Shown: positions 1-5,659 of the stretch, piece after piece
Layout: each line of letters begins with the position of its first letter
Position numbering within the stretch: position 1 is the stretch's first letter
Source of the DNA: a virus
Reading direction: 5' to 3' (one strand)
Length of the DNA: 5,659 bases
IMG/VR virus record: IMGVR_UViG_3300008807_000293
Span: 1-5,659 of that record
The notes under the pieces: model-generated
What the model saw: the letters and a program-made list of their open reading frames with translations, nothing else
Database searches by the model: none
What the model was told of the DNA's origin: nothing
Position numbers and translations under genes: made by a program

Positions 1-99
1 GGAAGCTATACGTCAACGTGAATTTTTTGCACGTCGTTATGTAGATGTTTTAGGAAATGTATGGGGTTCAACTGTTAATATTGATGCAGATCAAAGGCC
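1..99. repeat. Left copy of an exact 99-nt terminal direct repeat (identical to 5561-5659). This is the circularisation overlap of a 5560-nt circular genome.
   Basis: Read directly: ggaagctatacgtcaacgtgaatttttt...gcagatcaaaggcc occurs at 1-99 and again at 5561-5659. The capsid reading frame is continuous across the implied junction (offset 5560; frame 0 at the 3' end maps to frame 2 at the 5' end). Confidence 0.95.
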
Positions 100-682
100 A
101 GAATTGTTAATGCATAATAAGAATTGGTTGTCTGGTTATGATGTTGATGGTACAACTGATACAACATTGGGAACTTATAGTGGCAAAGGTGCAAGTGTTG
201 GTTCAATTAATGTTCCTTGGAAATATATACCCGAACATGGTGCAGTTTGGGTTATGGCTTTGTTGCGTTTTCCACCATTGCATTGTAAAGAACGTCATTA
301 TTTGGCAGGAAAATCTGAACCTACTTATGGGCAGATTTCTGGTGACCCTGAATATTATAAAAATCAAGCACCCATTGCTTTGAATATGTCGGAGTATTTT
401 GTTGGTTCTTCGGTCACTGATGCTGGCCAGATTCCTTATGGTCAATGGTATAGAGAGCAACCAAATTTTGTTCATGATCGTTATAAATTAATTGATGGTC
501 ATCCTTTTATAGAAAATAATTTTGATACTGTATATTCAACTAAGTATATTGGTACGACTGAATATGATAATGTTTTTTCTTCGTCACAATTGAAACATTG
601 GCAATCTCAAGGTTATTTGGACGTTCAAGTTAAGCGTTTAGTTCCTGATCCTCGTACTTCGATATTTGCAGGTACGGTATAA
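2..682 (+). CDS. F: Major capsid protein F, C-terminal part. It continues the ORF that starts at 4935. The joined ORF, 4935..5560 plus 1..682, is 1308 nt (435 aa).
   Basis: The frame is open from the window start to TAA at 680-682. The track start at 104 is an internal TTG. Translation ...DADQRPELLMHNKNWLSGYDVDGTTDTTLGTYSGK...IPEHGAVWVMALLRFPP...GQWYREQP... aligns by eye with phiX174 F (...DADNRPLLVMRSNLWASGYDVDGTDQTSLGQFSGR...VPEHGTMFTLALVRFPP...GQWYRYAP...). Confidence 0.93.
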   Translation, partial: EAIRQREFFARRYVDVLGNVWGSTVNIDADQRPELLMHNKNWLSGYDVDGTTDTTLGTYSGKGASVGSINVPWKYIPEHGAVWVMALLRFPPLHCKERHYLAGKSEPTYGQISGDPEYYKNQAPIALNMSEYFVGSSVTDAGQIPYGQWYREQPNFVHDRYKLIDGHPFIENNFDTVYSTKYIGTTEYDNVFSSSQLKHWQSQGYLDVQVKRLVPDPRTSIFAGTV

Positions 683-683
683 T

Positions 684-866
684 ATGATAATGAAACAGAT
701 TGAGGAAAAAGTTTATAATTATATTTATGATACTTCTAAACAAACTTATAGTGATCTCAAAGGAAAAGAATTGGAAAAATATCATTTTGTTCTTTGGGAG
801 TTGATTAAATGTGGCTATATTCAAATTGATCATGAAATTCGTATAAAAAATGAGGTGATAAAATGA
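684..866 (+). CDS. Hypothetical 60-aa protein inserted between capsid F and the G-slot gene. Possible small helical or winged-helix-like protein.
   Basis: ATG at 684 lies 1 nt after the F stop (TAAtATG). The stop TGA at 864-866 overlaps the next gene's ATG (863) as ATGA. The next gene's SD (GAGGTG, 852-857) lies inside its 3' end. The track start at 666 is a TTG inside F and is less likely. Translation: MIMKQIEEKVYNYIYDTSKQTYSDLKGKELEKYHFVLWELIKCGYIQIDHEIRIKNEVIK. I recognise no homolog. Confidence 0.55.
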   Translation: MIMKQIEEKVYNYIYDTSKQTYSDLKGKELEKYHFVLWELIKCGYIQIDHEIRIKNEVIK

Positions 867-1483
867 AACCAGATTTATCTAATAACCCTTTTTATTATAA
901 AAATCCTTCAATATTTACTTTGACTGATACTATAGTTGATGCTATTGATTCAGCTACAACAAATAATAATATTTATCCTTATGCGAATACATCAGTTGTT
1001 TCAGAAGATTTTGCTGAATTAGTTGTCCGCAATAATTCTTCTTCTAATCCAACTTTAACAGCTAATTATCGTATAGCTTATGGTGTTTTTTTGTCAGCAT
1101 TAAATGATAGGAAAGACATTATTTTTCAAGTTAATGGTTCATTTGTAACTTATCGGGATGCATCAGCTTCTATTTATCCTATTATTGGACGGGCTTCTTC
1201 AAATAGTGTAGTTTCATCCTCATCAAGTGTTGAAAATTTATTATCAACATATTCTATTCTTCCTTATAGTAGCGGTTCTTTAGGTGGTTCGCCAAATCAA
1301 TCTATTGCTAGTGTATCAATTGATATTTATAAAAGATTAGATTCGTCTAATACTTATCCTTATTTTTTTGGATGGGTTATTGAGGCAGGTGGTGCACTTT
1401 GTACTTTAGCAACTATAGTGTCTTCAATTTCTGTTAGAGCTTATTCTAATGAGGTTGACCCTTACCGTCCATCTAGAACGTAA
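863..1483 (+). CDS. Putative major spike protein (G-slot gene), 206 aa.
   Basis: SD GAGGTG (852-857) lies 5 nt before the ATG. The position between F and H matches phiX174 gene G. The protein is Ser/Asn/Thr-rich with no long hydrophobic or charged helices, consistent with a beta-rich spike. There is only faint C-terminal resemblance to phiX174 G (YPYFFGWVIE vs VYVGFMVWS). The call is mainly positional. Confidence 0.55.
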   Translation: MKPDLSNNPFYYKNPSIFTLTDTIVDAIDSATTNNNIYPYANTSVVSEDFAELVVRNNSSSNPTLTANYRIAYGVFLSALNDRKDIIFQVNGSFVTYRDASASIYPIIGRASSNSVVSSSSSVENLLSTYSILPYSSGSLGGSPNQSIASVSIDIYKRLDSSNTYPYFFGWVIEAGGALCTLATIVSSISVRAYSNEVDPYRPSRT

Positions 1484-1641
1484 ATGTCACTTTAAGTGCA
1501 TTAAGGTGGTGTGATTTCTTTAAATTTCTTTCTAACATATTCAAGCCTGTAATTAATACTATAGGAAATATTTTTGGTGTTAAGGGTAATGCTACTGCCG
1601 GAGAGGCTATTAATCAAGCTCTATCTAGCCCAGTTGGTTCT

Positions 1642-2322
1642 ATGCTTGCTGGTGCTGTTGGTAGTGCTGTTAGTGGTAAGGTTAATGGTGTCCCTACTCC
1701 AAGCAATGCACAGAGTGGTACTGCTCAAGGTCAGTCACAGCTTGATTTCATGAATACTGCATATCCCGGTACTACTCCTTGGGAACGTTTAGGTAATACT
1801 GGCATGTCTGGTATAGCAAGTTCTGCAATTTCTGCTAATGCTGCGGAAAAGCAACAGTCTCGTCAATTGGCACATGAAAGGCAGATTGAAACTGCTAGGT
1901 TGCTTGTGCAACAAGCGATTGCTACTAAGCAAGCAAAGGCTCAGGTTTTGTCTGCTGGTAGTCCAATGGGTGTTTCTGCCGCCAAGCAACTAGCAAATGC
2001 GTTGGATGATAAGCCAGTTTCTGAGTATGATACTTTTGTTAAGCAAGGACGTGACAAATTACCTTCTGAGATTGATCGAAATAAATCAGAGGAACATAGG
2101 AATTATTACTCTACTCCTTTTAGTGCAGGTTTTAAAATGGGTGAGGATGGTTCAATTGCTCTTAATACGGCATTGTCTATTTTAAGATTAAGTGGTAAAA
2201 TTTCTTCCCCTGAATCTATTGAAGCGCGTAAAAAATATATTAAGTCAATAGATTATGCTAATCATGATGGTCCTTTTACATTGTTAAAAGATGAATATTC
2301 TGGTAAAAAACATAAAAAATGA
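1642..2322 (+). CDS. H: DNA pilot / minor spike protein H, 226 aa from the first ATG. The true start may lie upstream (see findings).
   Basis: The Gly/Ala-rich N-terminus MLAGAVGSAVSGKVNG resembles phiX174 H MFGAIAGGIASALAGG. The motif FMNTAYPGTTPWERLG resembles YLAAAFPELNAWERAG. A Gln/Ala-rich predicted coiled-coil follows (QQSRQLAHERQIETARLLVQQAIATKQAKAQ). No obvious SD lies directly upstream of ATG 1642. Confidence 0.85.
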   Translation: MLAGAVGSAVSGKVNGVPTPSNAQSGTAQGQSQLDFMNTAYPGTTPWERLGNTGMSGIASSAISANAAEKQQSRQLAHERQIETARLLVQQAIATKQAKAQVLSAGSPMGVSAAKQLANALDDKPVSEYDTFVKQGRDKLPSEIDRNKSEEHRNYYSTPFSAGFKMGEDGSIALNTALSILRLSGKISSPESIEARKKYIKSIDYANHDGPFTLLKDEYSGKKHKK

Positions 2323-2329
2323 TTGTTAG

Positions 2330-2354
2330 GGCCGTCTGCTTTTTAGACGGAACC
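2330..2354 (+). terminator. GC-rich stem-loop in the H-A intergenic region. Candidate transcription terminator, mRNA-stabilising hairpin or ssDNA structural signal.
   Basis: CCGTCT (2332-2337) pairs perfectly with AGACGG (2345-2350) around the loop GCTTTTT. GG (2330-2331) can pair with CC (2353-2354) across an AA bulge. It starts 8 nt after the H stop (TGA, 2320-2322). No 3' T-run follows the stem, so it is not a textbook intrinsic terminator. Confidence 0.45.
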
Positions 2355-2364
2355 GGAACGGCTT

Positions 2365-3813
2365 ATGTTATCAGAATTAACCGACCCCGATTTTTCAATT
2401 ACTAATCTATGTCAAATAGACAAAGTATTTCGTTTAAAACACCGTATTAAATCACGTATTGATAATTTGACTGTTCAATCTAAGTTAAGTGATACTTATA
2501 ATGGTTTTCTTTATAATTTAGAGTATAAGCATTTATTTAATAAAGATATTCAAGAACTCTATAATATATATAATCGACTAGATAATAATAACGTTATTTG
2601 CAACAAGACGTATGAAGAATGTTATTCTTTGTATGTTAGGTATCCAAAGACGTTAAAAGAGCATGCTCAATTGTTGTTTGGTGGTCATTATTATAAGGCT
2701 AAGAATGTAAAAGAGCCATGTCCAGAATTAAAACAGTTTTTAATTAATTTAAAAAATAATACGTTAAAGTCTAGGAAATTTGAATCTTTAGCACTATTAC
2801 GAGTTGAGTGTCAATATAGATATAAACAAGGATGGTATTTTGTATTTAATACTCTTACGGTTGATAATAATTATTTATCTGATGTCTTTTCTAATGGGTC
2901 TGCTGTTTGGACTAATTATATAAGGTCAATTGATAGAATGTTTGGAATAAAGAGTTTTGGTGATTGGCGCACTGCTTTAAGGCAGAGAAAATTAGGTAAT
3001 GAATTTCATCAATACTTTGCTGTTGTTGAGCGTGGTGGTGAGACTGGTCGTTTGCATATTCATGTTTTACACATGTTTAAAGATTTGCCAGATCAGTTTG
3101 TTGATCCAAATTATGGGGCTAGGATACCTGTTTCACGTGAAATCGATTATATGAAATCATTTTGGAAATATGGCTATTCTTCTCCCATTGCTGTTAGGTT
3201 TAATTCAAGTGACGCTTATGCTAAGAAGTTTTGGCGATGGCCTGTTGAAAAGATGCCTAAAGTTGGTTATGTTTCTTTAGAAACTTCTGATATTGAACGA
3301 ATGATTAATTACGTTGGTAAATATATTTCTAAGACTTTAGATCAACCAATTAATTCTAAGGAGGTAATCAGATGGAGAATAAGGAAGTCAAGGACAATGT
3401 CAAAACAAGTTCTACAGGTTCTAGTGGACAAGTTGAAAGTAAAGGAGTTGGCACTAGTCATGGTAGTCAATCCAATAGTTTTGAAAATGAGAGGGAAAAT
3501 TCTACCCATAAGAATGTTAAGATTGATGGTTCTAAGAAAATTGATGATATATTGGACGATAACGAATTGCCAGAAATTGTCTCAGTTTCAGGCAAACTTA
3601 ATGCCTCGAGAGAATATTGTAAAGCAGTTCGTAAATATGATAAGTCTAAACATGGACTCCAAGATGCTGAGCATTGGAGATTTGAAAGTTCGCATCTTAA
3701 CAAATTTGGCAGGTTCTAGTTTATTGTTGACAATTAAAGAAGTCAGTGATATGATGTTAGGTGAATTGAAGAATAATTATGTAGTTAAACCTTATAGTGG
3801 AGCCATCATATGA
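2365..3813 (+). CDS. A: Replication initiation protein A (HUH rolling-circle endonuclease), 482 aa.
   Basis: This is the first ATG after an in-frame TAG (2344-2346). HUH motif: GRLHIHVLHMF (His-Ile-His codons at 3055-3063) vs phiX174 GRLHFHAVHFM. Also VDPNYGARIP vs VDPNFGRRVR, WKYGYSSPIAVRF vs WPYGYSMPIAVRY, and the paired catalytic Tyr motif YVGKYISK (Tyr codons at 3310 and 3322) vs YVAKYVNK. GWYFVFNTLTV matches GWFIVFDTLTL. Confidence 0.93.
   Translation: MLSELTDPDFSITNLCQIDKVFRLKHRIKSRIDNLTVQSKLSDTYNGFLYNLEYKHLFNKDIQELYNIYNRLDNNNVICNKTYEECYSLYVRYPKTLKEHAQLLFGGHYYKAKNVKEPCPELKQFLINLKNNTLKSRKFESLALLRVECQYRYKQGWYFVFNTLTVDNNYLSDVFSNGSAVWTNYIRSIDRMFGIKSFGDWRTALRQRKLGNEFHQYFAVVERGGETGRLHIHVLHMFKDLPDQFVDPNYGARIPVSREIDYMKSFWKYGYSSPIAVRFNSSDAYAKKFWRWPVEKMPKVGYVSLETSDIERMINYVGKYISKTLDQPINSKEVIRWRIRKSRTMSKQVLQVLVDKLKVKELALVMVVNPIVLKMRGKILPIRMLRLMVLRKLMIYWTITNCQKLSQFQANLMPRENIVKQFVNMISLNMDSKMLSIGDLKVRILTNLAGSSLLLTIKEVSDMMLGELKNNYVVKPYSGAII
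2575..2604 (+). other. Putative (+)-strand rolling-circle origin inside gene A, with the predicted nick after G2581.
   Basis: CGACTAGATAATAATAACGTTATTTGCAAC matches the phiX174 origin 30-mer as I recall it (CAACTTGATATTAATAACACTATAGACCAC) at 20/30 positions overall. It matches 15/18 in the nick-proximal part. It falls at the homologous place in the protein alignment (RLDNNNVICN vs QLDINNTIDH). Confidence 0.6.
3372..3719 (+). CDS. B: Internal scaffolding protein B, 115 aa, wholly nested in gene A in a different frame.
   Basis: A strong SD AAGGAGGT (3358-3365) lies 6 nt before the ATG. The nested-in-A arrangement is the same as in phiX174. The aromatic C-terminus AEHWRFESSHLNKFGRF resembles phiX174 B AEFYRFHDAEVNTFGYF. 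The internal REYCKAV resembles KSYCSRR. The N-terminal half is polar and acidic. Confidence 0.85.
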   Translation: MENKEVKDNVKTSSTGSSGQVESKGVGTSHGSQSNSFENERENSTHKNVKIDGSKKIDDILDDNELPEIVSVSGKLNASREYCKAVRKYDKSKHGLQDAEHWRFESSHLNKFGRF

Positions 3814-4166
3814 ATGTTATTTTACAATCTTTGCAAAGTTTTATTGATATGGAAGGTATTTGGTCAGAACCCATTAAGTATCGTATTTATTATATTTTGG
3901 GTTTATTAGATGAAAAATTGACTGTAACATCTGATACATTGTTGATTTCTAAAGATGGTTCTTTAGATATTAAATCAAGAGAAGAATTTATTTCTGAATC
4001 TGCTAGTGTAAGATTGACTAGAAATTCATTGAGTAATTTGATTTCTAAAGTTAAAGATGCAAATAATTTTTTGGCAATGCCTGATGCTGATACTGATTTA
4101 ATTTCATCTTCTTTGATCAGTGCTCGTCTTTATTTGTTTTCTATTTTGTTAAGTGAGGTTAAATAA
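3810..4166 (+). CDS. Hypothetical 118-aa protein in the position of phiX174 gene C (DNA maturation / packaging switch). I recognise no sequence similarity.
   Basis: GGAG (3799-3802) lies 7 nt upstream of the ATG. The ATG overlaps the A stop as ATGA (3810-3813). The stop TAA at 4164-4166 is 1 nt before the D start. Tight coupling on both sides argues that it is translated. Confidence 0.6.
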   Translation: MNVILQSLQSFIDMEGIWSEPIKYRIYYILGLLDEKLTVTSDTLLISKDGSLDIKSREEFISESASVRLTRNSLSNLISKVKDANNFLAMPDADTDLISSSLISARLYLFSILLSEVK

Positions 4167-4167
4167 T

Positions 4168-4671
4168 ATGCAATATAAAGTTGCTAGAGGTGCAATGGCG
4201 TTAATTGCTCATCAATGTAAGAATGGTGATTTGGATTCAATGGGTGTTACTTTAGAAGATTTTAAAAAATTGACTTCTCATACACCTTGGTTAGCCCCCG
4301 ATAGAAATCGAATGAATCAAGTATTTAATAGCATTATGTCTGGTACTATGGATGTTGTTGGTGTTCCCCGTTTTCAAATGCCTGCTGAGTATATTGCTGC
4401 TGGTATAGCTATGTTTGTTGCCCCCATAAATATTCATGTTGCATGTCGTTTCATGGAAAGAATTCCGACGGCCGAGAGTTTAGGTCGTGGATTAGATCAA
4501 GCAGATATGTGTACAGCTCAACAGTTATTTAGTTTAGTTGTTCAATTAGTTGCTGATCCTGAAACGTCTCATGCAAAGGTTTTATTTGAACGAAATACGC
4601 AAATGAGAATTGAAAATTCTGCTTTTCATGCTGACGAAAATTCTTCGGTTGAATCTGGAAAACGTAAGTAA
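4168..4671 (+). CDS. D: External scaffolding protein D, 167 aa.
   Basis: TLEDFKKLTSHTPWLAPDRNRMNQVFNSIMSGTMDVVGVPRFQMPAEYIAAGIAMFVAPINIHVACRFMER aligns by eye with phiX174 D LTEDDFDFLTSNKVWIATDRSRARRCVEACVYGTLDFVGYPRFPAPVEFIAAVIAYYVHPVNIQTACLIMEG. I prefer ATG 4168 to the track's GTG 4153, because that GTG is part of the SD (GTGAGGT, 4153-4159) serving ATG 4168. Confidence 0.9.
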   Translation: MQYKVARGAMALIAHQCKNGDLDSMGVTLEDFKKLTSHTPWLAPDRNRMNQVFNSIMSGTMDVVGVPRFQMPAEYIAAGIAMFVAPINIHVACRFMERIPTAESLGRGLDQADMCTAQQLFSLVVQLVADPETSHAKVLFERNTQMRIENSAFHADENSSVESGKRK

Positions 4672-4688
4672 AATAAAGGAGGTGCAAA

Positions 4689-4751
4689 ATGGCAAGACCA
4701 AAAAAACGTAAAGGAATCAGAATCCACTATAAAGGTGGAAACCGATTTTAA
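4689..4751 (+). CDS. J: Small basic DNA-binding / packaging protein J, only 20 aa (MARPKKRKGIRIHYKGGNRF).
   Basis: It is below the ORF-track size cutoff and was found by reading. A strong SD AAGGAGGTG (4676-4684) lies 4 nt before the ATG. The N-terminus is basic. The C-terminus RIHYKGGNRF resembles phiX174 J RLWYVGGQQF. Its position between D and F is as in phiX174. Confidence 0.8.
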   Translation: MARPKKRKGIRIHYKGGNRF

Positions 4752-4759
4752 GGTGTCCT

Positions 4760-4927
4760 ATGGGTAAAGATTTTAAATTTTCTAAAAGATCGTCTCTGAT
4801 TGGGTTCATTGTTGGAACAATTTTATCTGTTTTAAGTCTTTTTGTTCCACAGGTGAAAGATTTTAAAGATGCTTTATCTCAAACAAATGAAAATCCAGTT
4901 TCAGTTGTAGTTGATTCTATTAAGTGA
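4760..4927 (+). CDS. Hypothetical 55-aa single-pass membrane protein. Candidate lysis (amurin-type) or K-like membrane protein.
   Basis: It is below the ORF-track cutoff. SD AAGGTG (4750-4755) lies 4 nt before the ATG. Translation: MGKDFKFSKRSSLIGFIVGTILSVLSLFVPQVKDFKDALSQTNENPVSVVVDSIK. It has a basic N-terminus, about 19 hydrophobic residues, then an acidic/polar tail. The F SD (GAGGTG, 4926-4931) straddles its stop codon (TGA, 4925-4927). It fills what is a non-coding J-F spacer in phiX174. Confidence 0.6.
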   Translation: MGKDFKFSKRSSLIGFIVGTILSVLSLFVPQVKDFKDALSQTNENPVSVVVDSIK

Positions 4928-4934
4928 GGTGATT

Positions 4935-5659
4935 ATGGGGCAAACTAGTGCAAATGAAAATTCTCATATTAACGAGCGAATCCAGTATGATTTGAGCCAT
5001 TGGTCAATGAATTGTGGCATGATTGGTGGTTTGCAGACATTATCTTTGATTCCTGTTATTGCAGGTGATTCAATTAAAATTGATATGGATGCAGTATTTC
5101 GTCTTTCACCATTACGTAGGAATTTATATTTAGATTGTCAAATTGATTTGTTTGCCTTTTATGTTCCACACCGTCATATTTATGGCTCATCTTGGATTGA
5201 TTTTCTTAAAGCGGGTCCTAATGAAACAACTACTTTTGGTACTCGTACTTTAACTGGTGCAAATTATTGCTGTGGTACTCATTTGCCAGAAGGTACTGTT
5301 CCTCGTTGGATACCTGAAGGATATTTACAGATTTGGAATCGTTATTTTAAGCACCCCACAGATGCTGATGAAGCTATGTCTTATTTCGATAGTTTAGCTG
5401 CTGGTAGTGATGTGTTAAATTATGGAATTCCATGTGGTTGGCCTGGTCGTATTTGGAATACACAAGTTGCGGCTTTAGCTGTTAACTCTGACAAACGTTT
5501 TAGTTTGGTTGATACTGATAAGATTGATTTGTTAGATATGGCTAATAAACAAGGTCACTTGGAAGCTATACGTCAACGTGAATTTTTTGCACGTCGTTAT
5601 GTAGATGTTTTAGGAAATGTATGGGGTTCAACTGTTAATATTGATGCAGATCAAAGGCC
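4935..5659 (+). CDS. F: Major capsid protein F, N-terminal part. It runs off the window end and continues at 2..682 through the circular junction.
   Basis: SD GAGGTG (4926-4931) lies 3 nt before the ATG. I read no stop through 5659. Translation MGQTSANENSHINERIQYDLSHWSMNCGMIGGLQTLSLIPVIAGDSIKIDMDAVFRLSPLRRNLYLDCQIDLFAFYVPHRHIYGSSWIDFLKAG... aligns with phiX174 F ...MPHDLSHLGFLAGQIGRLITISTTPVIAGDSFEMDAVGALRLSPLRRGLAIDSTVDIFTFYVPHRHVYGEQWIKFMKDG. Confidence 0.93.
   Translation, partial: MGQTSANENSHINERIQYDLSHWSMNCGMIGGLQTLSLIPVIAGDSIKIDMDAVFRLSPLRRNLYLDCQIDLFAFYVPHRHIYGSSWIDFLKAGPNETTTFGTRTLTGANYCCGTHLPEGTVPRWIPEGYLQIWNRYFKHPTDADEAMSYFDSLAAGSDVLNYGIPCGWPGRIWNTQVAALAVNSDKRFSLVDTDKIDLLDMANKQGHLEAIRQREFFARRYVDVLGNVWGSTVNIDADQR
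5561..5659. repeat. Right copy of the 99-nt terminal direct repeat (identical to 1-99).
   Basis: Exact identity to 1-99, read directly. It lies inside the capsid ORF, so it is an assembly or linearisation overlap and not a biological repeat. Confidence 0.95.

Follow-up and report, generated by a model that had tools for sequence, protein, structure and literature searches.

Phylogenetic position and genome organization

Pequeñovirus is the sister clade of Bullavirinae within Family 1 (Suborder I), a group defined by the spike and external scaffolding proteins (PMC9239249). The same relationship is stated in a second study (PMC6116155), and the clade was proposed by Bryson et al. 2015, as cited in both of these papers. 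The external scaffolding protein D is a hallmark absent from the other suborders (PMC9239249); gokushoviruses lack it (PMC9431446; PMC9239249), as the initial sequence-only reading of the DNA studied here had stated. Two cultured phages with a non-enterobacterial host, Vibrio phages vB_VpaM_PG19 (PG19) and vB_VpP_WS0699 (WS0699), carry both D and the internal scaffolding protein B (PMC9431446). An AT-rich member of the sister clade, Eel River basin pequenovirus KP087957 (NC_026665; 30.7% GC), became publicly available in 2015.

The analyzed DNA (referred to as the window; 5,659 nt) is a circular contig, whose bases 1-99 form a perfect 99-nt assembly overlap (an unstranded feature) with bases 5561-5659; the true length of the genome is therefore 5,560 nt. 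There is a single coding strand, and all genes and sites described below are located on this (+) strand. The gene order, A (with B nested)-C slot-D-J-F-G-H, is that of phiX174 and is colinear with about 60 relatives. It is highly probable that the window represents the complete genome of an uncultivated phiX174-type microvirus of the pequeñovirus-like radiation, sister to Bullavirinae. In the scheme of Kirchberger et al. 2022 it is placed in Suborder I / Family 1. The presence of D and of a protein with the predicted G fold rules out a gokushovirus or any other microvirus from outside Family 1.

The F protein shares 48% identity with that of KP087957 and 38-39% with those of Bullavirinae (39% with phiX174; at most 39.4% with any of more than 500 Bullavirinae records), and the corresponding values for D are 53% and approximately 39%. 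The nearest F relatives are encoded by metagenome contigs (69, 67 and 62% identity). F proteins retrieved at E<1e-20 numbered 582, a count that includes Bullavirinae. In a neighbor-joining (NJ) tree (midpoint-rooted, without bootstrap support) the window fell within the pequeño-like radiation containing KP087957, together with relatives L004, L014 and L098, and far from Bullavirinae. Pequeñovirus has no formal demarcation criteria; judged by F, the window belongs with the Eel River basin sequences and not with Bullavirinae. Compared with Bullavirinae sensu stricto (Sinsheimervirus, Gequatrovirus, Alphatrevirus), it forms a separate deep branch, with no F of high identity, no gene E overprinted in D and no homologs of C or K.

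The sequence-only reading had suggested a possibly divergent lineage, a view that an F protein lying inside the phiX174/G4/alpha3 clades at high identity would contradict. The F and D identities and the tree place the window outside these clades, but the lineage is not a new one, since it is the known Pequeñovirus clade. The interpretation is new only in part: the sister clade, its AT-rich member KP087957 and the cultured, non-enterobacterial Vibrio phages with D and B have all been described previously. The general picture of microvirus biology is unchanged by these results. What is gained is one more complete genome from the sister group of the best-known ssDNA phages. This radiation has received little study; it comprises at least several hundred public relatives and has no cultured member.

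KP087957 shares with the window the complete gene order, including D and the G- and H-type genes. It differs in that (i) the window is closer to metagenome contigs than to KP087957, (ii) the C slot of KP087957 contains two small unrelated ORFs instead of one 118-aa ORFan, (iii) its gene H has a normal ATG start, and (iv) its genome is larger (6,083 nt versus 5,560 nt). The Vibrio phages resemble the window in having two scaffolding proteins, B nested in A, a genome of approximately 5.57 kb, no recognized C, E or K, and a G protein that is unrecognizable by sequence. However, PG19 and WS0699 branch beside Bullavirinae in the NJ tree, and the F and D proteins of phiX174 gave much stronger matches to WS0699 than to the window (F, 1e-111 versus 5e-89; D, 7e-49 versus 3e-20). 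The Vibrio phages also have a higher GC content (41%).

Capsid, scaffolding and DNA-binding proteins

The major capsid protein F (435 aa) is interrupted by the ends of the contig. Its 5′ part (positions 4935-5659) is preceded by the Shine-Dalgarno sequence (SD) GTGAGGTG and continues at positions 100-682 once the overlap is removed; the 3′ part occupies positions 1-682, of which 1-99 duplicate 5561-5659. F matches Pfam Phage_F (1.3e-58) and PHROG 514 (6.5e-76), in agreement with the capsid protein type of Family 1.

The external scaffolding protein D (167 aa; positions 4168-4671), the Family 1 hallmark, matches Pfam gpD (1e-19; 71 bits, above the 25-bit cut-off), PHROG 1386 (3.3e-46) and the phiX174 D structures in the PDB (1tx9/1al0/1cd3; 2.6e-18), and it is present in all of the nearest relatives.

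The internal scaffolding protein B and the DNA-binding protein J, a B gene nested in A and a small basic J being a further Family 1 feature, are putatively assigned by weak E-values (~1e-3 and ~1e-2, respectively) backed by position and motif. The B gene (115 aa; positions 3372-3719; SD TAAGGAGGT) lies wholly within A and is read in the +2 frame relative to it, as is phiX174 B. Only the C-terminal 40 aa are matched, by Pfam Phage_B (1.2e-3, below the Pfam cut-off) and PHROG 1473 (8e-4); in pairwise alignment with phiX174 B the C-terminal motif reads HWRFESSHLNKFGRF / EFYRFHDAEVNTFGYF. Homologs of this B were found in most relatives. The J protein (positions 4689-4751; SD AAGGAGGTG) has just 20 aa (MARPKKRKGIRIHYKGGNRF), which sets it apart from Bullavirinae J. 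It matches Microvir_J at 0.009, and its C-terminal motif (KRKGIRIHYKGGNRF, versus KRKGARLWYVGGQQF in phiX174; pattern RKGxRIHYxGGxRF) is common to Bullavirinae J proteins.

The two-scaffold (B plus D), phiX174-type architecture recognized in the sequence-only reading is therefore supported, with D, F, A, B and J homologous to the phiX174 proteins. By homology, procapsids would be assembled from F and G pentamers with the aid of both scaffolds, B (internal) and D (external), and the small basic J would be co-packaged with the single strand.

Spike and pilot proteins

The G and C slots had initially been considered unrecognizable. At the level of sequence families this holds for both. The G-slot protein (206 aa; positions 863-1483) has no match in Pfam or PHROG, and its comparison with Bullavirinae G using hhalign gave only E 0.018; it is conserved in approximately 25 pequeño-like genomes. 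Its predicted fold, however, is that of the G spike. The best four PDB matches of the AF2 model (pLDDT 70, pTM 0.72; moderate confidence) are the G proteins of PJNS002, phiX174, PJNS001 and alpha3 (E from 5e-7 to 3e-6, probability 1.00; TM 0.44-0.57 against the solved structures), and the next PDB match has a 500-fold worse E-value. A comparison with BFVD also returned the G protein of ID204, as well as pequeñovirus-type proteins with TM of 0.7-0.8. On the basis of this model, the protein is a predicted major spike protein G, diverged past sequence recognition from its Bullavirinae counterparts, and this Family 1 hallmark is seen by fold only. The "missing" spike of pequeño-like phages would thus be a diverged G, detectable by its fold.

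Gene H (positions 1516-2322; approximately 268 aa) encodes the DNA pilot protein (PHROG 1471 pilot protein, 0.009). Matches between H of the window and Bullavirinae H range from 1e-3 to 1e-4, those between phiX174 H and the H proteins of relatives from 2e-5 to 3e-4, and a shared motif was seen (AYPGTTPWERLG / AFPELNAWERAG). As in phiX174, H would act as the DNA pilot. A strong SD, TTAAGGTGGTG (positions 1501-1511), precedes codon 1516, where TTC stands in place of a start codon. No canonical start is present at the conserved N-terminus; in frame, the first is ATG 1642. This start-less layout (SD-TTC) was seen in two independent genomes, the window and L098.

Replication gene A and other DNA elements

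The rolling-circle replication initiator A (482 aa; positions 2365-3813; PHROG 713, 5e-76; Pfam Phage_GPA, 8e-8) contains the HUH motif GRLHIHVLH and the two-tyrosine motif YVGKYISK, both of which align with phiX174 A. A candidate viral-strand origin, CGACTAGATAATAATAACGTTATTTGCAAC (positions 2575-2604), is homologous to the 30-nt origin of phiX174, CAACTTGATATTAATAACACTATAGACCAC, and occupies the equivalent site in gene A. With 3 mismatches, it was the single match, where 0.04 would be expected, and the peptides encoded across the two origins align (RLDNNNVI / QLDINNTI). The element is also present in gene A of L004, L014, L098, L099, L102, L105, L113 and L155. An HUH initiator with two predicted catalytic tyrosines and a putative origin within its own gene corresponds to another Family 1 feature; A would nick this conserved origin, leading to rolling-circle replication.

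The best sigma-70-like promoter match (TTGACA-17-TATGAT with TG; 11/12 positions) lies at positions 3727-3755, immediately past B and ahead of the C slot and D; promoter-like sites were not enriched genome-wide (31 versus 26.2 in shuffled sequences). The H-A intergenic region contains a G+C-rich hairpin (positions 2325-2359; core stem 2332-2337 / 2345-2350; DNA fold -6.8 kcal/mol, z -2.15), possibly a terminator or a strand-origin element.

Small fast-evolving genes and a candidate lysis protein

The start of the C-slot ORF (118 aa; positions 3810-4166) overlaps the stop codon of A as ATGA, exactly as does C of phiX174, and its translation may be coupled to that of A. Among 1.84 billion representatives, its homology search returned just the protein itself and two low-complexity matches. 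There were no matches in 70 relatives or to Pfam and PHROG families, and hhalign comparisons with the slot ORFs of relatives and with Bullavirinae C were negative. The AF2 model has a pLDDT of 53. Judged by these comparisons, the protein is a true ORFan.

The proteins C, E and K of phiX174 gave no match to the window. Gene D contains no overprinted hydrophobic ORF either, so the absence of K and E reported in the sequence-only reading was borne out. Among Bullavirinae, phiX174 E and C matched every locus tested, and K matched phiX174/G4-type loci only. In contrast to phiX174, where these regions are intergenic, the window has two additional free-standing small genes, in the J-F and F-G slots.

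The J-F gene (positions 4760-4927) encodes a 55-aa protein, designated TM55, whose N-terminus is basic and for which a single membrane helix is predicted (residues ~12-30; hydrophobicity 2.22 over 19 aa). No Pfam or PHROG family matched TM55. A homolog, a 59-aa membrane ORF, occupies the same position in KP087957 (3e-6), and an HMM of TM55 did not reach past this genome. Similar small membrane ORFs are found in the J-F slots of L098, L100, L110, L115-L119 and L150, and no TM55-like gene is present in those of the nearest relatives L004 and L014. Our best guess is that TM55 is a candidate lysis protein; if so, TM55 and its positional counterparts, replacing the overprinted E, would constitute a new single-gene lysis family.

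The F-G slot contains a 60-aa accessory ORF (orf60; positions 684-866) with no family match. The nearest relatives lack it; KP087957 and L100 have ORFs of similar size at the same site. The small-gene slots (C slot, J-F and F-G) turn over fast, and novel proteins for lysis or host interaction may be encoded there.

Composition, host and alternative interpretations

The genome has a GC content of 33.9%, compared with 44.7% for phiX174, which bears out the strong AT-richness noted by eye. The tetranucleotide GATC occurs 13 times where 16 are expected, and 44 pequeño-like genomes show the same lack of avoidance (1027/1025), as does KP087957. In contrast, GATC is nearly absent from every Bullavirinae genome tested (observed/expected 16/231 over 13 genomes; 0/15 in phiX174) and from the Vibrio phage (1/17), the latter in keeping with its Vibrio host. 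Avoidance of GATC is tied to Dam/MutH.

The long canonical SDs that had been noted are real, as illustrated by those of J, B and F given above; for six structural genes their strength ranges from -9.5 to -15.2 kcal/mol, against a background mean of -2.2. Together with the AT-richness, they had been taken to suggest a low-GC, SD-dependent host other than Escherichia, Salmonella or typical Bacteroidota. They do argue against SD-poor hosts such as Bacteroidota, but cannot separate the window from phiX174, because the SDs of the latter are also strong (H: -12.6 kcal/mol).

The proposal of a non-enterobacterial host is favored by composition (the low GC content and unavoided GATC), but a scan of species genomes provided no direct host link; its only matches were phiX174 spike-in contamination and a single whole-virus contig from a bin. 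Neither a prophage nor flanking bacterial DNA was seen; an 11.9-kb contig consisted of two joined viral genomes. The host probably lies outside the enterobacteria. Composition points most likely to a low-GC, SD-using, two-membrane bacterium without Dam/MutH, and therefore not to a member of Enterobacterales or to Vibrio.

Could the window simply be an AT-shifted but otherwise typical phage of the phiX174/G4/alpha3 groups that infects enterobacteria? The shared gene order, the ATGA coupling of A and the C slot, the identical frame of the nested B and the homology of D, F, A, J and H would all fit. We nevertheless find this barely credible, given an F (38-39%) and D (~39%) so distant from all 500+ records, the remote position in the tree, the absence of C and E (found in all Bullavirinae loci tested) and of K (found in phiX174/G4-type loci), GATC that is unavoided here and reduced to 7% of expectation in Bullavirinae, and a GC content 11 points lower. 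An assembly chimera or defective variant, with a broken H and a junk C slot and orf60, would account for the conserved N-terminus of H without a canonical start and for the two ORFs without homologs. This is very improbable as well, since the contig closes on itself through a perfect overlap, is colinear with its relatives, and shares the start-less H layout with the independent assembly L098. Moreover, the chance of a 118-codon open frame at 34% GC is ~1e-4 (an estimate from base composition), and this frame fits exactly between A and D.

A low-GC Gram-positive (Bacillota) host, which would make this the first phiX174-type phage of a monoderm, is compatible with the GC content, the long canonical SDs and the unavoided GATC, and one relative, L018, had been placed in the bin of a Clostridia MAG. 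However, L018 says nothing about Clostridia, because this contig, a complete viral genome of 6 kb, was assigned to the bin by composition and avoids GATC (2/20) like enterobacterial phages. Furthermore, all cultured D-bearing microviruses infect Gammaproteobacteria, and the virion retains the G spike and the H pilot with its conserved motif; G and H of phiX174 are responsible for LPS binding and for the tube that crosses the two-membrane envelope. A Bacillota host is thus unlikely, and we prefer the low-GC, two-membrane host without Dam/MutH. A more far-reaching combination, in which H is produced by non-canonical initiation or recoding at the conserved SD-TTC, the host lies outside Gammaproteobacteria (low-GC and Dam-negative), and E is replaced by TM55-type lysis, is doubtful, though less so than a Bacillota host. 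GATC counter-selection draws a clean line between the pequeño-like radiation and phages whose hosts are Dam-positive, and thereby provides a cheap compositional test for host class.

Genome organization

The first 99 bases of the window are identical to its last 99, so that the contig represents a 5,560-nt circle that was read through once by the assembler. The G+C content of the window is 33.9%, as against 44.7% for phiX174 in the same analysis, which bears out the impression, gained earlier from the sequence alone, of a more AT-rich genome; on the coding strand the bases rank T>A>G>C. Every long ORF lies on the + strand and, with the terminal overlap removed, the gene order is that of phiX174, A(B)-C-D-J-F-G-H. 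The long canonical Shine-Dalgarno (SD) sequences quoted in the sequence-only reading are present, with pairing energies of -9.5 to -15.2 kcal/mol for the six structural genes versus a background mean of -2.2. Counts of four-base palindromes revealed no restriction-site avoidance in the window, and searches of the window gave no match to any Rfam family or tRNA.

Two putative regulatory sequences were also observed. A G+C-rich hairpin (2325-2359; core CCGTCT-7 nt-AGACGG; -6.8 kcal/mol, z -2.15), located between H and A, where the sequence is otherwise AT-rich, may be the counterpart of the terminator that follows phiX174 gene H. A near-consensus sigma-70 match (3727-3755; TTGACA, 17 nt, TG-TATGAT; 11 of 12 positions) lies directly past B and upstream of the C slot and D; across the window, promoter-like sites show no enrichment over shuffled sequence.

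Proteins recognizable by sequence

The two-scaffold architecture of the phiX174 type, with D, a nested B and a tiny J, was confirmed. The product of D (4168-4671, +) matches the Pfam gpD family at 1e-19 (71 bits, cut-off 25), PHROG 1386 at 3e-46 and the solved phiX174 D chains in the PDB at 2.6e-18; its identity is unambiguous. B (3372-3719, +), which is nested in A in another frame, gave weak scores (Pfam 1.2e-3, under the Pfam cut-off; PHROG 8e-4), both over the last 40 residues only. Its frame offset within A is that of phiX174 B, HWRFESSHLNKFGRF at its C-terminus can be aligned with EFYRFHDAEVNTFGYF of phiX174, and homologs are present in most of the relatives. The 20-residue J (4689-4751, +) is recognized by its C-terminal KRKGIRIHYKGGNRF, a match to both KRKGARLWYVGGQQF of phiX174 and the relatives' J peptides.

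The major proteins F (4935 to the end of the window, then 100-682, +) and A (2365-3813, +) match Pfam Phage_F (1e-58) and PHROG 713 (5e-76), respectively. The A protein contains an HUH motif (GRLHIHVLH) and a two-tyrosine motif (YVGKYISK), aligned with those of phiX174 A, and a 30-mer within the gene (2575-2604) resembles the phiX174 origin, is located at the equivalent site and recurs in relatives. By homology, (i) A would nick the origin that its gene contains and drive rolling-circle synthesis, (ii) B would act as the inner and D as the outer scaffold in the assembly of F and G pentamers, (iii) J would enter with the DNA and (iv) H would pilot the DNA during infection of the next cell.

The G slot

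The protein encoded in the G slot (863-1483, +) has no family match in Pfam or PHROG, and a profile of 24 members of its clade, compared with the Bullavirinae G profile using hhalign, gave a colinear alignment that is not significant (E 0.018). It is kept in about 25 related genomes. A word-indexed protein search returned only the protein itself when started from the sequence, and 16 mostly distant proteins when started from the G alignment. The AlphaFold2 model, which rests on a shallow 16-sequence MSA, is all-beta, with a mean pLDDT of 70 and a pTM of 0.72. The four highest-ranking PDB matches are all G spikes, from Salmonella phage PJNS002, phiX174 (2bpa_2), PJNS001 and alpha3 (1m06_G), with E-values of 5e-7 to 3e-6 and a probability of 1.00; the fifth match stands at 1.6e-3. 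In BFVD the best matches (TM 0.7-0.8), which judging from their accession series are presumably entries of the Eel River pequenovirus, are followed by G of phage ID204. From the predicted fold we conclude that the slot holds a diverged G spike. The earlier statement that the proteins of the G and C slots are not recognizable therefore stands for both at the sequence level, and falls for G once its fold is considered.

The H slot and its start

The H protein (about 1516-2322, +) shows weak, reciprocal similarity to its counterparts: the window H matches Bullavirinae H at 1e-3 to 1e-4, and phiX174 H matches that of the relatives at 2e-5 to 3e-4. A motif, AYPGTTPWERLG / AFPELNAWERAG, is common to them. 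Comparison with the PDB gave only insignificant, troponin-C-like matches.

The frame of H is open from 1477, and its first ATG, GTG or TTG codon, at 1642, has no SD. The 42 codons that precede it (1516-1641) align residue for residue with the H N-terminus of L004 and L014, two close relatives, and a strong SD, TTAAGGTGGTG (1501-1511; -11.5 kcal/mol), lies six bases upstream of codon 1516. This codon is TTC; the relatives have ATG at that position. A one-off sequencing error is unlikely, since the arrangement recurs in an independent assembly, that of a third close relative (L098; 62% identical in F): in L098 (region 3508-3685), TAAGGAGGTGTGCT-TTC precedes a run of 59 codons without a start. 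A programmed -1 frameshift was considered as the explanation. The window, and it only, contains a GTG at 1511 in the +1 frame, followed by a -1 slippery heptamer (T_TTA_AAT, 1519-1525) leading into the H frame, so that such a mechanism would be workable here; we rejected it as a general account because L098 is likewise start-less and lacks the slippery heptamer. Pattern scans of IMG/VR and a metagenome collection with the H-start motif yielded chance matches only and no microvirus genes.

The C slot and the missing E and K genes

The phiX174 E, K and C proteins have no match in the window; the same E and C queries match every Bullavirinae genome tested, and K only those of the phiX174/G4 type. 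Nor was any hydrophobic ORF overprinted on D found in the window, in agreement with the previously noted absence of E and K.

The ORF of the C slot (3810-4166, +) is very probably a gene, because its 118 codons remain open at 34% GC, it occupies precisely the space between A and D, and its start codon shares an ATGA overlap with the A stop; phiX174 C starts in the same way. An exhaustive HMMER search of 1.84 billion representatives found only the protein itself and two long low-complexity proteins, nothing was found in 70 related genomes, and hhalign linked its profile neither to ORFs in the same slot of relatives nor to Bullavirinae C. The single-sequence AF2 model (pLDDT 53) is too poor for use. 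In the relatives the A-D slot is occupied by between one and three small ORFs, and many of these share no detectable similarity; judged from these comparisons, it is a region of fast turnover.

A 31-codon hydrophobic ORF (3814-3909), which starts one base past the A stop, overprints the C slot at about the position of phiX174 K. No homolog was found in any relative, and it is probably not a gene, as T-rich sequence readily yields such ORFs.

Small accessory genes

Between J and F lies a free-standing 55-aa ORF, TM55 (4760-4927, +), whose product has a basic N-terminus and one predicted membrane helix. Its homolog (3e-6) is a 59-aa ORF at the J-F position of the Eel River basin pequenovirus (KP087957), and in many relatives this slot contains unrelated-looking small membrane ORFs as positional counterparts. 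Our best guess is that TM55 is a candidate lysis protein, substituting for the missing E. The guess is a weak one, because the slot has no TM55 counterpart in the nearest relatives, L004 and L014, and the positional counterparts are not connected by profile: the other small membrane ORFs were not picked up by an HMM of TM55 and its KP087957 homolog.

A 60-aa ORF (orf60; 684-866, +) is located between F and G. Read by eye, its product has a helix-turn-helix-like residue pattern; no family match was obtained for it. The nearest relatives, with F-G gaps of only 10-62 nt, lack this ORF; at this site KP087957 and another relative, L100, have ORFs of 63 and 75 aa. In L004, the closest relative, a small zinc-ribbon-like ORF (CxxC...CxxC; 802-999) follows H, and the J-F slot contains a perfect G6/C6 hairpin (3470-3500) instead of a membrane ORF, which shows that the small accessory slots change freely.

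Placement among related genomes

Among GenBank phages the best F match is KP087957 (48%; its D 53%), followed by a Ciona-gut microvirus (47%); identity to all 500+ Bullavirinae is 38-39%. In a large protein collection the closest F proteins share 69, 67, 63, 62 and 61% identity, and are encoded on metagenome contigs of 5.3-5.9 kb, in all of which the gene order is that of the window; 582 F proteins were found at E<1e-20. In IMG/VR the single-protein F query gave no match, and an alignment-based scan was needed.

In a neighbor-joining tree of 68 F proteins the window groups with L004, L014 and L098, in a subclade of 34-39% GC genomes. This lies inside a large radiation that includes KP087957 (30.7% GC), spans 30% to 60% GC, and is set apart from Bullavirinae, the Vibrio phage and a few intermediates. 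The lineage is divergent, as had been suggested, but it has already been described: Suborder I / Family 1 includes Bullavirinae, Klebsiella prophages and Pequeñovirus MAGs, with the spike and the external scaffold as hallmarks (Kirchberger et al. 2022, PMC9239249). Cultured Vibrio microviruses with D and B have been reported to lack recognizable C, E, K and G (PMC9431446).

An 11.9-kb contig carrying the F gene of a relative was considered as a prophage and rejected, as it consists of two viral genomes in tandem. The 11-12-kb contigs L118 (IMGVR 3300020043_004369) and L165 (ENA ERZ23493485 scaffold_235) each contain two different microvirus genomes in head-to-tail arrangement, and are concatemers produced by assembly rather than prophages.

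The host

A scan of 185,579 species genomes revealed no prophage or host link. Apart from one whole-virus contig binned into a 'Clostridia' MAG, its output was phiX174 control DNA contaminating dozens of unrelated assemblies. These contaminants are 5.4-5.5-kb contigs (L019-L097) from Phaeobacter, Clostridium, Bifidobacterium, Helicobacter and others, similar in size to phiX174 (5,386 nt); their F gives the same match to the query as phiX174 F (39%, residues 14-432), and they represent sequencing-control DNA left in public records. The binned contig is L018, a different 6-kb microvirus.

The sequence-only reading had proposed a low-GC, SD-dependent, non-enterobacterial host. Composition favors a non-enterobacterial host, by low GC and by the frequency of GATC, the latter being, we think, the more discriminating; the SD argument excludes little, since the SDs of phiX174 are comparable on some genes. 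Whole-genome counts, which covered the window and L001-L163, distinguish genomes almost devoid of GATC from genomes with the expected number. Those of the first kind are 13 Bullavirinae genomes, in which GATC occurs 16 times versus 231 expected (7%; phiX174, 0/15), the Vibrio phage (observed/expected 1/17) and L018 (2/20); those of the second are 44 pequeño-like genomes (1027/1025) and the window (13/16). Counter-selection of GATC in enterobacterial phages is attributed to Dam/MutH, a system known only from some Gammaproteobacteria. The host of the window would then lack Dam/MutH, and would therefore not be Escherichia, Salmonella or Vibrio. A two-membrane host appears more likely than a Gram-positive one, given that the predicted G spike and the H pilot, as understood from phiX174 biology, are retained. 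Two relatives, L100 (2/10) and L104 (3/18), are exceptions with respect to GATC; selection against this sequence by their hosts or by restriction systems may be the reason.
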